A stretch of 64,000 nucleotides of DNA from Mustelus asterias (taxonomy: Eukaryota): contig NW_027590119.1 of NCBI RefSeq assembly GCF_964213995.1, forward strand, positions 248,001 through 312,000, read 5' to 3'. Position numbers and translations under genes: made by a program. Below, one piece after another: positions 30,507 to 38,072 of this stretch. Numbering within the stretch: the stretch's first letter is position 1; every line of letters starts with the position of its first letter. A model generated the notes under the pieces. The model saw nothing but the letters and a program-made list of their open reading frames with translations, ran no database searches and was not told where the DNA came from.

Positions 30507-30589
30507 ATGGCGGCAGGGGCGGGGCTCGCCAACAGCGCGCGCTGGCTCAAGTGGACCCTCGAGCGCAACCTGAGCGACAGCAGCAGCAG
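30507..30589 (+). CDS. EMC4: EMC4 exon 1 (partial gene)
   Basis: MAAGAGLANSARWLKWTLE resembles EMC4 N-terminus as recalled (ANRGRRFKWAIE); gccATGg; phase-2 donor GTGCGG. Confidence 0.8.
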
Positions 30590-31229
30590 GTGCGGAGGCC
30601 GCGCGGGGAGCCGGGGGCTCGAGTAGGAGGCAAGCCGGGTCAGCCCGCCTCTCCCGCGAAGGCGACCTGGGGATGTGACACCAACTCAAAACTTCCCAAC
30701 CCCGGGTTTTTCACGTCTCTTTTACCCCTCACCGAGCTCCTCAGCACAAAGCAGCCCCTCAAATCCTCCAGAAACCACTCAGACCCCACTTGGCATCTTT
30801 TCCCCAGGTCATGACCCTGAGATGCCATCTTGGTTTCAGCCCCTCCACCTGAACAGGTGCCAACTGCGGTGGTGGTTGGAGGAACGATTGCTCGTTTCCA
30901 GGGCCGGGTGCTGAACTGGATCTCTCTCAATGTCCCGCAATGTTTGTTTTCAAGATACAATTTGGTACATCTGGTGATTTGTCGCTTTGTCCCGAAATGG
31001 AGGGCAAGCGGATTGGCACCCTGATTATCAATTCACACTAAATCTACTTCTACATCCCTCCATTCCCCTGGCAGTTTGGTACACGCAATGGCAGTGTGTG
31101 TCTGAGGTTTGCCCAAGCTTTAGTTTGTGCTGGCACTATTGCCACCACGTTGGGGTCCGCAAAAGAGAGACTCCCTTTTTAAAGAAGGTCTTGAAAGAGT
31201 GACCAACTTGTGTTTTCTGTTTCTCATAG

Positions 31230-31341
31230 GAGCCGTGATCAACAGTGTGGCCAGAGAGACTCCATGTGCCCAGTCGCATATTCGGACAAACAGCTACCGG
31301 ACATCTGCGTCCAAGAAACAGACCGGATCCTGGTCGAGAAA
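31230..31341 (+). CDS. EMC4: EMC4 exon 2
   Basis: [32 protein letters not shown] acceptor, GTAAGT donor. Confidence 0.92.
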
Positions 31342-31522
31342 GTAAGTTAGATTTGAATGTGTCTGGTTTGTTCACGGTGGTGAAGTACCTTGGTGAACCA
31401 CAGCACCCTGTGCGATAAAGGGTTAATCATCATCCTAACTTCCAGGCCTGGGTATAAGATCAGCATATGGCCTCCCGTAACCGGCCCCCTTTACTGATAC
31501 CCTGCTCGCTTTCTGTTTTCAG

Positions 31523-31677
31523 TCCTGCTGGGACATCGCCTTGGGCCCATTGAAACAGCTGCCCAAGATGTCCCAACATCATGTACATGGCTGGCAACAA
31601 CATCTCCATCCTCCCTATCATGATGGTGTGCATGATGGCCTGGAGACCTATACAGGCCTTGATGTCCATGTCTGCAA
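31523..31677 (+). pseudogene. EMC4: EMC4 exon 3 with +1 frameshift; later EMC4 exons not found in the window
   Basis: [13 protein letters not shown] then 13 nt where 4 codons are expected, then [33 protein letters not shown] in the shifted frame; GTGAGT donor. Confidence 0.88.
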
Positions 31678-32071
31678 GTGAGTATTGTATTGAATCTACA
31701 GCTCAGAAACAGCTCTGAAGCGGCATCACTTGAGTGCAGCTTAGAATAGAGTTCTGGGAGTTGGGTAATTAAGGGAGTTAGGGAAGGAAGGGAAAGAGGT
31801 GCCCTTTTGCTTTCTAACTTTCTCAGCCTTTAGGAAGTGATCTTACTCTTCTACAGGAGAAGAAGCCAGATTTTTGGTGAGTATCTGCGAAGTAACTAAG
31901 ATTTATTCTGTTCCTAAGGATCACAATAGTATAGCAACAGGTGGTAAAGTTAATAAAATACTTAAAAACAAAAATAAATTATCATTGGATAAAAGAAATA
32001 GTTTATTAGTACACATTCAAGCTGCAGCATTTGGGAGTTCCTGGGTGTCAGTTTGATCCAGGGCAAACAGG

Positions 32072-35000: not shown

Positions 35001-35245
35001 CATCGAATTGTGGTCACTATCTCCAAAGTGCTCTCCCACAACCAAATCTAACACTTGGCCCGGTTCATTTCCCAGTACCAAATCTACTGTGGCCCCACCT
35101 CTTGTCGGCCTATCCACATATTGTGTCAGGAAACCCTCCTGCACACACTGCACAAAAACTGCCCCATCCAAACTGTTCGACCTACAAAGGTACCAATCAA
35201 TATTTGGAAAGTTAAAGTCCCCCATGACAACTACCCTGTGCCCCC
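32072..35245 (-). mobile_element. Two adjacent CR1 LINEs (32072-32815 and 32820-35245)
   Basis: [34 protein letters not shown] motifs; two separate 3' tails. Confidence 0.93.
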
Positions 35246-35364
35246 ACAGATATCCATAATCTGCTTAGCAATTCCTTCCTCCACCTGGTTTCAGCAGCAG
35301 GTGAGCTGAGGCCAGGACAAAGTGGGGCGATGTCACTGAGGTGGAAATAGGTAGTGTAGGTGGT

Positions 35365-36163
35365 GATGTGGCAAATAGAGTTAAATACAGATCAGTGTGA
35401 GGTGTTGCATCATGGGAAGTCAAACCAAGGTAGAACTTTCACAGTGAATGGTAGGACCTCAGGGAGTATCGTGGAACAGAGGGACCTTGGAGTCCAGGTG
35501 CACGGTTCTCTTAAGGTGGAGTCACGTGTAGATAGGGCAGTGAAGAAGGCTTTTGACATGCTGGCCTTTATCAGTCAGGGCATTGAGTATAGGAGTTGGG
35601 AAGTTATGTTGCAGTTGTACAGGACTTTGGTGAGGCTGCACCTGGAATATTGTGTTCAGTTTTGGTCACCTTGATTTGGAAAGATGTTATTCAACTGGAG
35701 AGAGTGCAGAAGAGATTTACAAGGATGTTGCCAGTACTCAAGTTATAGGGAGAGATTGGATGAGTTAGGACTTTTTTCTTTGGAGCGTAGGAGACTGAGG
35801 GGTGATCTTATAGAGATGTGTAAGATCATGAGAGGCATGGATAGGTTGAATGCACTCAGTCTTTTTCCCAGGGTTGGGGAATTAAGAATTAGAGGGCATA
35901 AGTTTAAGTTAAGAGGGGAAAGAATTAATGGGAACCTGAGGAGCAGCTTTTTTACACAGAGGGTGGTACGTATGTGGAATGAGCTGCCGGAGGGAGTGGT
36001 TGAGACAGGGACATTGTCAACATTTAAAAGGCATTTGGACAGATACATGGATAGGAAAGGTTCAGAGGGATATGGGCCAAATGGAGTTAGCTCACATGGG
36101 CATTTTTGGTGGGCATTGTCCAGTTTGGGCCGAAGGGCCTGTCTCCGTGCTGTAGATTCTATG
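35365..36163 (+). mobile_element. CR1 LINE 3' fragment
   Basis: CEVLH, RDLGVQV, LEYCVQFWSP, FFTQRVV motifs. Confidence 0.9.
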
Positions 36164-36766
36164 AGGATATGTTTAGAAGCTCAGTTTGAAGTGAAACATG
36201 TCACTGAGGTTGTGAATACTCCGGTTCAGCCTCAGACAGTCGCAATGGGGACAGATGGAGTCAGTGGTTCGGAAGTGGAATTTGTTGCAGGGCTGAAGAT
36301 GACAGCCTTCATCTTCCAATATTTAACAAAGGCAATTACTGCTCATCCAGTCCTGGATGTCAGACAAGGGAGGATGGTGTGTAAAATTGGAGGGAATTTG
36401 GAGATGATGGTGTTCACATACACCTCTTACCCTGATCCTTCTCGGTGGGCAGGTTAACGGTTTTAAGGTTCAAACCACTGGTTGAGTTGTAAGATACATA
36501 AAGTCCCTCCTTTGCCCCCATCTCTCTCTCCATCCATTGAGGCCTGAGCCTTGTGTAGTCCCAGACTGGATGGCAGATTCCCTTCCCTGAAAGGCATTAG
36601 TGAACCAGTTGAGGTTTTATGACAATCCAGCAGTTTCCATGGTAACTTTTTCCTGGTGCCGGCCCCACAAATGACCAGATTCATTCGGCTCAATTTCACA
36701 ACCTGCCTTTGTGTTTTTGTGGGATCTCTCTCACTCCCTTTTCGCTGTTTTAAATCAATTTCACAG

Positions 36767-38072
36767 GGTTTTAGAAGGGGATGATTTGCAGTCAGGAAAC
36801 TCAAACCAAACATCAAATCCAGATCTGACTGAGTCGCCCAACTTATCGTTACCTGAATACCACTGAACCTTGAGCATGGAAGGAAAAAGCACCATTCACA
36901 ATGGGGCAAAACTGTACACGTGTTCTGTGTGTGGACAAGGATTCAGACAATCATCTGGCCTGTCAAGACACAAGTGCAGTCACACTGAGGAGAAACCGTG
37001 GAAATGTGGGGAAGGATTCAGAGACCTGTCTGAGCTGGAAATTCACCAATACAGTAACACTGGGGAGAGGCTGTTCACCTGCTCTGAGTGTGGGAGAGGA
37101 TTCACTCAGTCATCCACCCTGCTGACACACCAGCGAGTTCACACTGGAGAGAGGCCATTTATCTGCTCCGAGTGTGGAAAGGGATTCACTCAATCATCTA
37201 ACCTGCTGACACACCAGCGGGTTCACACTGGAGAGAGGCCATTCACCTGCTCTGAATGTGGGATGCGATTCACTCAGTCATTCAACCTGCTGAGACACCA
37301 GCGGATTCACAAGGGAGAGAGGCCATTCACCTGCTCCGAGTGTGGGAAGGGATTCACTCAGTCATCTACACTGCAGACACACCAGCGAGTTCACACAGAG
37401 GAAAGACCATTTAAATGTCCAGAATGTGGCAAGTGCTATAAAAGTTTAAAGGAAGTGATGTTCCATCAACGTGTTCACACTGAGGAGAGACCATTTAAAT
37501 GCCCAGACTGCGAGAAGTGTTATAGAGGTTCCAGAGAACTAATGTTCCATCAACGTGTTCACACTGATGAGAGACCGTTCAGGTGCTCTCACTGCGGGAC
37601 TGGGTTCAGGTGGTCATCTCAACTCACTGAACACCAGTGAATTCACACTGGGGAGCGGCCGTTCACTTGCACTGACTGTGGGAAGGGATTCACTCGGACA
37701 TCACACCTCATGGCACATCAGCAAGTTCACACCGATGAGAGACCGTTTAAATGTCCAGACTGCGGGAAGTGCTGTAAAAGTTCCAGCAATCTAGTGTCCC
37801 ATCAACGTGTTCACAGTGAGGAGAGACCTTTTAAATGTCCAGACTGCGGGAAATGCTATAAAAGCTGCAGTGATCTGATGTCTCATCAACGTGGTCACAC
37901 TGATGAGAGACCGTTCAAGTGCACTCACTGCGGGACTGGGTTCAGGCGACCATCCCAACTCACTGTCCACCAGCGAATTCACACTGGGGAGAGGCCGTTC
38001 ACCTGCTCCAAATGTGGAAAGGGATTCACTCAGAAATACAACCTGTTGAGCCATCAGCGAGTTGACAAGTGA
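36767..38072 (+). pseudogene. C2H2 zinc-finger exon with two in-frame TGA stops (36864, 37638); residual ORF from ATG 36876
   Basis: Acceptor TTTCACAG|G at 36766/7; ORFs 36870-37640 and 37710-38072 share one frame; ~13 fingers. Confidence 0.85.

Follow-up and report, generated by a model that had tools for sequence, protein, structure and literature searches.

What does the front end of a membrane-insertase gene do inside a cluster of zinc-finger genes? We address this question for EMC4 in a window of 64,000 nucleotides from the 3.68-Gb genome of Mustelus asterias (contig C87:248001-312000; coordinates are window positions unless a locus or contig is named). The window is a C2H2 zinc-finger (ZNF) gene cluster interspersed with remnants of long interspersed nuclear elements (LINEs), and it holds EMC4 exons 1-3 followed by a ZNF exon on the same strand, Table 1. 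An earlier note had proposed that a ZNF recruited a duplicated EMC4 promoter together with its exons, possibly as an in-frame chimera. We consider it quite probable that, at the level of the gene family, the EMC4 front is spliced to the ZNF and acts as its promoter and 5' leader, with no fusion protein being made. The copy in the window is a truncated, decaying member of this EMC4-headed family, ZNF-A.

Exons 1-3 have the canonical splice sites that the earlier note described, and no later EMC4 exon follows: exon 4 was not found in 30300-40299, nor did a genome-wide EMC4 profile search give an exon-4 match within the window. The AG/112 nt/GT layout of exon 2 is present in 28 of the 28 copies compared, and the Pfam EMC4 match continues past the shift in exon 3 in the native frame (E 3e-9). 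The intron-3 remnant aligns at 88-90% to positions 1-1754 and 3520-4277 of L044, a full-length EMC4 duplicate, and the collinearity with full-length duplicates stops there; in L044 exon 4 begins at L044:4728. The chimeric intron also contains a LINE, which we take to be CR1-like, missing from L062 although both flanks are common to L062 and the window. A functional EMC4 has five exons, about 180 aa and membrane segments; here exon 4 is absent and exon 3 is shifted.

The EMC4 front probably brings the promoter. The window has CpG islands at about 12.9, 30.3, 41.0 and 46.1 kb, and that of EMC4 is the sole one upstream of the ZNF acceptor at 36767. None lies between 31700 and 36767, in agreement with the earlier note's remark that this ZNF has no island of its own. 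The other ZNFs of the window have their own islands, and two outgroup ZNFs (85%) have one in common with a head-to-head ZNF. Homology among the EMC4 duplicates begins at 30231, and their promoter contains motifs that we take to be YY1-, GC-box-, NRF1- and ETS-like. One promoter motif has 77 matches in the genome, 75 of them with an EMC4 exon 3 at most 6 kb away. The roughly 50 nt before the ATG (30455-30506) align clearly to the likely parent gene (score 53 vs a shuffle maximum of 31), while the NRF1-like piece at 30380-30455 is borderline, with 6 out of 200 shuffles scoring as high. With no other CpG island and a constrained open reading frame (ORF), the EMC4 island may be the main start site of the ZNF and drive its protein.

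This arrangement is the rule in the family. Among the ZNF-A copies (at least 90% identical), 32 out of 37 have a same-strand EMC4 exon 3 within 12 kb upstream. The five others all have the family's LINE insertion, in whole or in part, lack a CpG island within 8 kb upstream and look derived. The EMC4-ZNF unit recurs in copies that are 91-96% identical.

Spliced EMC4-to-ZNF transcripts are found at the family level in assembled contigs of public runs (X1-X5). A GT..AG join from 31341 to 36767, exon 2 to the ZNF exon, is present in X4 (organism B) with sides of 114 and 116 nt and 1 and 7 differences, respectively. It is also found in X1 (organism A, two contigs, depth 168.7) and X2 (organism B), each with a 24-nt side, and is absent from the X5 contigs on the window. 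An X3 contig, compared on a family-B locus, has 114 nt of exon 2 and then the ZNF-A leader. Exon 1 is joined to exon 2 in X1 and X2, the X4 contig has the last 10 letters of exon 1, and an X1 contig extends upstream to about 30398. The earlier note had missed the exon-2 join, which is the best supported and is out of frame, and had suggested joins from exon 3 and exon 1 instead. An exon-3 join to the ZNF appears for X1 on the family-B locus (depth 73.6, with a 25-nt side that is below the 31-letter bar), while 31677>36767 is not among the 15 joins listed of 247 on the window. The join 30589>36767 is neither among these nor among the 15 listed of 48 on the family-B locus, which does not prove that it is absent. 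No exon-2 join to the ZNF of family B is among those same 15 of 48; one X4 contig fits the family-B leader (6 differences in 129), preceded by 36 unplaced letters. The claim that 36767 is the next strong acceptor holds in part: a crude score finds 11 further pyrimidine-rich AG sites between exon 3 and 36767, but the RNA joins still use 36767. Retrocopies were rejected as a source of the joins, since none of the exon-2 ends in the genome carries the spliced letters, against 67 with GT.

The joins at exactly this acceptor are matched by NCBI gene models and, together with the linkage above, support the proposed recruitment of promoter and exons. In model P0149 (86 aa), every residue agrees with exons 1 and 2 of L071 read on into its out-of-frame leader. 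The 118-aa models P0139 and P0212 agree with the product computed for L035 and L051, exons 1-3 followed by two residues of the ZNF exon; taken alone, this is a weak match. P0148, on a family-B contig, continues from exons 1 and 2 into a cryptic exon that lies about 0.9 kb upstream of the ZNF of that family.

The ZNF itself is under constraint. Its ORF (Pfam zf-C2H2, E 4e-48) starts at its own ATG and ends here at a second in-frame TGA, 37638, that the earlier note had missed. The window copy therefore keeps 7 out of 12 canonical fingers and lacks the run from ATG to natural stop of intact copies (about 398 aa, 12 fingers). Eight of 24 EMC4-headed copies reach the natural end (286-454 aa), L038, L055 and L061 among them. 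We calculated dN/dS for eight equal-length copies among these 24, excluding L051 (frameshift) and copies of other length. The pooled value is 0.23; 24 out of 28 pairs lie at 0.10-0.31, three close pairs at 0.36-0.63, and one pair has no synonymous change. Codon positions 1 and 2 are variable at 24 of 796 sites vs 35 of 590 in the adjacent intron, with a Fisher p of 0.01 that is optimistic because the copies are related. This pattern shows the signature of purifying selection on the ZNF ORF, and the constraint likely postdates the capture because all the compared copies share the EMC4 head.

The duplicates have a likely parent, the intact EMC4 that the earlier note proposed to search for. It is found at the end of contig C71 (20.4 Mb): exon 3 is at 20.309 Mb, exon 4 follows after another 25 kb, and a ZNF is located about 28 kb upstream. 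Its exons 2-4 measure 112, 154 and 161 nt, the identity in exons 1-3 is 82-88%, and NCBI models it as a 183-aa protein (P0218). A DNA search gave 107 candidates, of which the 40 scored are 86-100% identical. The profile search gave 137 matches in the genome, 106 to exon 3 and 31 to exon 4, and 28 of the latter have an exon-3 partner no more than 6 kb away; the copy total is uncertain because unplaced contigs may hold haplotype duplicates. Thirteen exon-3 matches, including the likely parent, are on C71. The duplicates keep introns 1-3, i.e. they were copied as DNA.

We sorted the kinds of copies from 60 stretches and 27 more. In family A, that of the window, exons 1-3 and part of intron 3 are followed by a ZNF-A exon about 5 kb on. 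Family B (five loci and L112) keeps intron 3 up to L044:4630, compared with 4277-4375 in family A, and its downstream ZNF is about 72% identical to ZNF-A. Two further ZNF types lie downstream in families C (L069, L076) and E (L062, L064). Family D (six loci) faces a ZNF on the opposite strand and has lost the exon-3 acceptor in the aligned copies. Because the breakpoints differ and the ZNFs are far more diverged than the EMC4 heads, comparison of the families suggests that the EMC4-ZNF joins arose independently.

Another group of duplicates is full-length. These keep exon 4, are modelled as 180-aa proteins and have a dN/dS of 0.18-0.24 vs the parent (six copies); one X3 contig runs through exons 2-3-4 of this type. 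About 28 duplicates keep exon 4 (L040, L043-L047; models P0096, P0124-P0137) and would amount to a multi-copy EMC subunit.

Some observations concern single copies or models. In P0138, P0144, P0148 and P0141, exon 1 is lengthened by about 11 codons through a downstream donor (window 30590-30625), in the duplicates of both Mustelus and Scyliorhinus canicula; in family B the normal exon-1 donor is lost (GT to CT). L111 (C124:118001-128000) has the promoter and exon 1 only; it is followed by one ZNF about 2-3 kb on, in opposite orientation, and by another, on the same strand, about 8 kb on. On the 58.7-Mb contig C25, a lone piece of duplicate-type exon 3 (L074:4581-4703) ends at the exon end without intron.

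In a protein tree of 26 sequences (exons 1-3), six Mustelus and five Scyliorhinus canicula duplicates group together with support 99/96. The group stands apart from the parent genes of both species, with the outgroups on the other side. The EMC4 duplicate lineage thus likely predates the catshark-houndshark split, since the duplicates of both species form one group in the tree. This split is more than 100 million years old. In Scyliorhinus canicula the lineage is represented by models P0141 and P0213-P0216 on four scaffolds, and the tails of its EMC4-like models resemble exon 5 in a shifted frame after exon 3.

These observations suggest the following history. EMC4 was copied into the ZNF cluster next to it, according to the tree likely before the catshark-houndshark split. 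A rearrangement in the repeat-rich intron 3 would then have cost the copy its exons 4-5 and brought the intron and last exon of a ZNF in behind exon 3, and the unit was amplified to the 32 copies seen. Transcripts of the family splice exon 1 to exon 2 and exon 2 to the ZNF; a splice from exon 3 to the ZNF is probable as well. The EMC4 ATG, in strong context (GCCATGG), is the predicted start of an upstream ORF that in such transcripts has 65-93 codons (70 here) and terminates short of the ZNF ATG, by 91 nt in this copy; across the copies the lengths span 21-93 codons. Translation of the ZNF protein would begin at the ZNF's own ATG, through leaky scanning, through reinitiation or from a start site further downstream, as the selection on its ORF suggests. 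The copy in the window is decaying: exon 3 has a private +1, and an early stop cuts the finger array short.

Several points weigh against this reading. The transcript data are assembled contigs of public runs, none of which is recorded as RNA, and that X1-X4 are RNA is our guess. Only the X3 and X4 contigs, from one study and two samples, pass the 31-letter bar on both sides, and no single molecule runs from the promoter to the finger array. The X4 contig differs from the window copy at 8 of 230 sites, and no contig is assignable to this copy. The NCBI models may rest on the same reads as the contigs. Since the context of the EMC4 ATG is strong, the 70-codon upstream ORF should limit translation of the ZNF, and this translation is itself a prediction. 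Sixteen of the 24 EMC4-headed ZNF-A ORFs are broken. The dN/dS values come from copies that are not independent of one another, and dS can be raised by CpG decay or by conversion; the 106 exon-3 matches may be an upper-side count of copies. Finally, 30231-30380 gives no alignment to the parent promoter. This distal module may be diverged or of hybrid origin, being specific to EMC4 duplicates yet untraceable in the parent. It has no match to ZNF promoters in 20 fetched loci, and its motifs are almost exclusively at EMC4 copies, so a ZNF origin was not found.

The broken ORFs and the strong upstream ATG would also be expected from neutral read-through, where 3'-truncated EMC4 duplicates fire and splice to the next acceptor, and a ZNF protein comes from another start or not at all. 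With a ZNF every 5-15 kb, EMC4-ZNF adjacency is expected in such a dense cluster, and adjacency alone therefore proves little; family D even faces a ZNF on the opposite strand. Fusions are common among human duplicates and rarely change the ORF, according to PMC6169893. However, read-through does not account for the ZNF ORF being under purifying selection in copies that without exception have the EMC4 head, for the EMC4 island being the only one upstream of the ZNF, or for the well-bridged contigs that enter the ZNF-A exon all coming from exon 2. We regard it as unlikely.

The selected product could instead be a short EMC4-derived peptide of 70-118 aa, the ZNF exon merely providing the last exon and 3' end. 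NCBI labels the loci as EMC4-like proteins, the full-length duplicates have a dN/dS of about 0.2 vs the parent, and within the front it is exon 2 that varies least. In 21 copies, the diversity is 0.030 in exon 2, 0.088 in exon 1, 0.056 in exon 3 and 0.036-0.048 in the introns. A constrained peptide is very hard to reconcile with exons 1 and 3 being more variable than the introns, with exon 3 being frameshifted or stopped in many copies, with the wide range of upstream ORF lengths, and with the constraint on the ZNF ORF itself.

On the copies compared, we reject the chimera of the earlier note, an in-frame EMC4-ZNF protein made possible by the +1 in exon 3 (or by exon 1) that the TGA at 36864 would have interrupted afterwards. 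The exon structure on which it rests is correct. The shifted exon-3 tail is free of stops, and exons 1-3 or exon 1 alone, joined at 36767, enter the finger frame and halt only at this TGA, so that a single stop separates the matching frames. The X1 join from exon 3 and the CGG at the TGA site of two outgroup ZNFs could also be taken in its favour. The relatives of this copy speak against it. The TGA is present in 29 of 29 ZNF-A leaders, and CGA, which the note expected in relatives with the +1, never occurs. Five codons upstream, a TAA is found in 24/29 ZNF-A, 5/5 family-B and 3/3 outgroup leaders; the two outgroup ZNFs with CGG carry it and are yet closed. No ORF crosses the junction in any of the 29 ZNF-A or 5 family-B leaders. 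The older TAA is also in family B and the outgroups, and the leader was therefore closed before and after the capture. In the window lineage the TAA has mutated to TTA, i.e. judged from the aligned leaders this lineage lost a stop and gained none. The transcribed leaders contain the closing stops as well: the TAA in X3, the TGA and the ZNF ATG in X4. Exon 2 joins out of frame, and if exon 3 has its native 154 nt, a stop follows two codons past the join. No protein with both EMC4 and C2H2 domains is among the 120 listed of 747 longer EMC4 homologues.

The +1 is the exchange of a 12-nt block for 13 nt, found in 2 out of 20 aligned copies, that of the window and one on contig C90. The new block plus one flanking base is an exact 14-mer of the repeat at 32644-32657, and the frameshift is likely a templated insertion from the LINE 1.1 kb downstream because of this shared 14-mer. 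A hairpin template switch from the 5' end of exon 3 itself would need two further changes. The C90 copy may, from its similarity, represent the other haplotype. The +1 is recent, nearly private to this copy and its near-twins, and younger than the TGA at 36864; the frame match of exon 3 with the ZNF is therefore due to chance. A sequencing or assembly artefact can be dismissed: the C90 copy is 99.4% identical to that of the window over 10 kb and many copies are on unplaced contigs, but the +1 involves several bases and is shared by two contigs with differences at other sites, and the unit recurs in copies of 91-96% identity, is spliced in outside runs and belongs to a duplicate lineage present in another species.

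Beyond the reading of the EMC4 front as promoter and 5' leader of ZNF-A, a bolder version is possible, which we hold only tentatively and think rather doubtful. The EMC4 front would be an old portable promoter cassette, a shark core duplicon, that has been joined repeatedly to at least four ZNF subfamilies since before the catshark-houndshark split and then amplified, with the EMC4 ATG acting as an upstream-ORF brake. If so, the brake would let many broadly transcribed ZNF copies be tolerated and tuned at translation.

Table 1. Features of the EMC4-headed ZNF-A copy in the window.
Feature	Position	Strand	Remarks
Promoter and 5' leader of EMC4 duplicate	30231-30506	+	CpG island about 30301-30800
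EMC4 exon 1, coding part	30507-30589	+	83 nt, phase 2, GT donor
EMC4 exon 2	31230-31341	+	112 nt, AG/GT; donor joined to ZNF acceptor in RNA-like contigs
EMC4 exon 3	31523-31677	+	155 nt (parent 154), AG/GT; 12-to-13-nt replacement at 31565-31577
EMC4 intron 3 remnant with internal deletion	31678-32817	+	Collinear with full-length duplicate L044
LINE insertion in chimeric intron	32828-35290	-	Reverse-strand ORF remnants 32884-33645, 33897-34811
ZNF-A exon, non-coding 5' part	36767-36875	+	Acceptor 36767; TGA 36782 (exon-2 frame), TGA 36864 (ZNF frame)
C2H2 zinc-finger ORF	36876-37640	+	Own ATG (AGCATGG, good context); 254 aa, 7 canonical fingers
Remaining finger array past premature TGA 37638	37641-38072	+	CGA in intact copies

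Elsewhere in the window, the CpG island at 12901-13600 lies between two head-to-head ZNFs (11664-12740 on the minus strand, 15908-16498 on the plus strand) and includes a GC-rich tandem repeat, with a second tandem array beside it at about 13650-14250. An antigen-receptor V-like segment is located among the ZNFs at 21405-21733 on the minus strand (V-set match, E 1e-11), followed by CACAGTG, a 23-nt spacer and ACAAAAACT; presumably it is a T-cell receptor alpha/delta V orphon. Near-complete LINEs are found at 16499-20555 (minus) and 56785-60763 (plus). Their first ORF is GDSL-esterase-like, with a Pfam match of E 1e-11 for the one at 19425-20552.

EMC4 is normally a single-copy gene. Here it has about 100 copies, of which some are nearly whole and expressed and others stand in front of ZNF genes. 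The class of mechanism is known. Promoter recruitment by segmental duplication has been described mainly from primate core duplicons, and the shark case is larger in scale and older. We found no paper on shark EMC4 amplification or on EMC4-led ZNFs in a search that covered literature outside subscription journals and supplements. The case also contains an annotation trap, as NCBI names some transcripts "EMC4-like" after the upstream ORF when in fact a ZNF gene forms their last exon.

A core duplicon is described in PMC3371713 as a transcribed module common to many duplication blocks with different flanks on one chromosome. The EMC4 front may be such a module: the flanks downstream of it are of at least five kinds, and 12 duplicates are spread over 4.5-18.7 Mb of C71. 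In the same text, the LRRC37 promoters are duplicated from BPTF and DND1, likewise foreign promoters gained by segmental duplication in a core-duplicon region. There one family has several promoters, whereas here one promoter module precedes at least four ZNF types, with expression seen for one. The NBPF genes recruited their promoter from EVI5 (Vandepoele 2009, as cited in PMC3429928). In both cases the duplicated 5' region of an unrelated gene heads a family and the unit was then multiplied. Unlike NBPF, the shark family consists of C2H2 ZNFs and not DUF1220 proteins, the donor keeps its coding exons and its ATG as an upstream ORF, and the captured donor copies are accompanied by about 28 that are nearly complete.

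In human, 3'-truncated segmental duplicates make fusion transcripts, e.g. NOTCH2NL-NBPF and ARHGAP11B (PMC6169893). They resemble the present case in that a 3'-truncated duplicate keeps its promoter and splices downstream, mostly out of frame. The human tails described there are mostly non-coding, whereas the ZNF exon carries a complete ORF that has an ATG of its own and appears to be under purifying selection; the donor lineage in the shark is also far older. Finally, cartilaginous fishes have lost KRAB, as reported in PMC8455134. The window has the organisation of KRAB-less shark ZNF clusters: TGERPF-linked fingers in one exon, a non-coding 5' part, a CpG-island promoter a few kb upstream, and birth-and-death turnover. 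Capture of an EMC4 front is a possible route for such clusters to gain promoters, and ZNF-A differs from the other KRAB-less shark ZNF genes in that its promoter and leader exons come from EMC4 and not from a native ZNF island.

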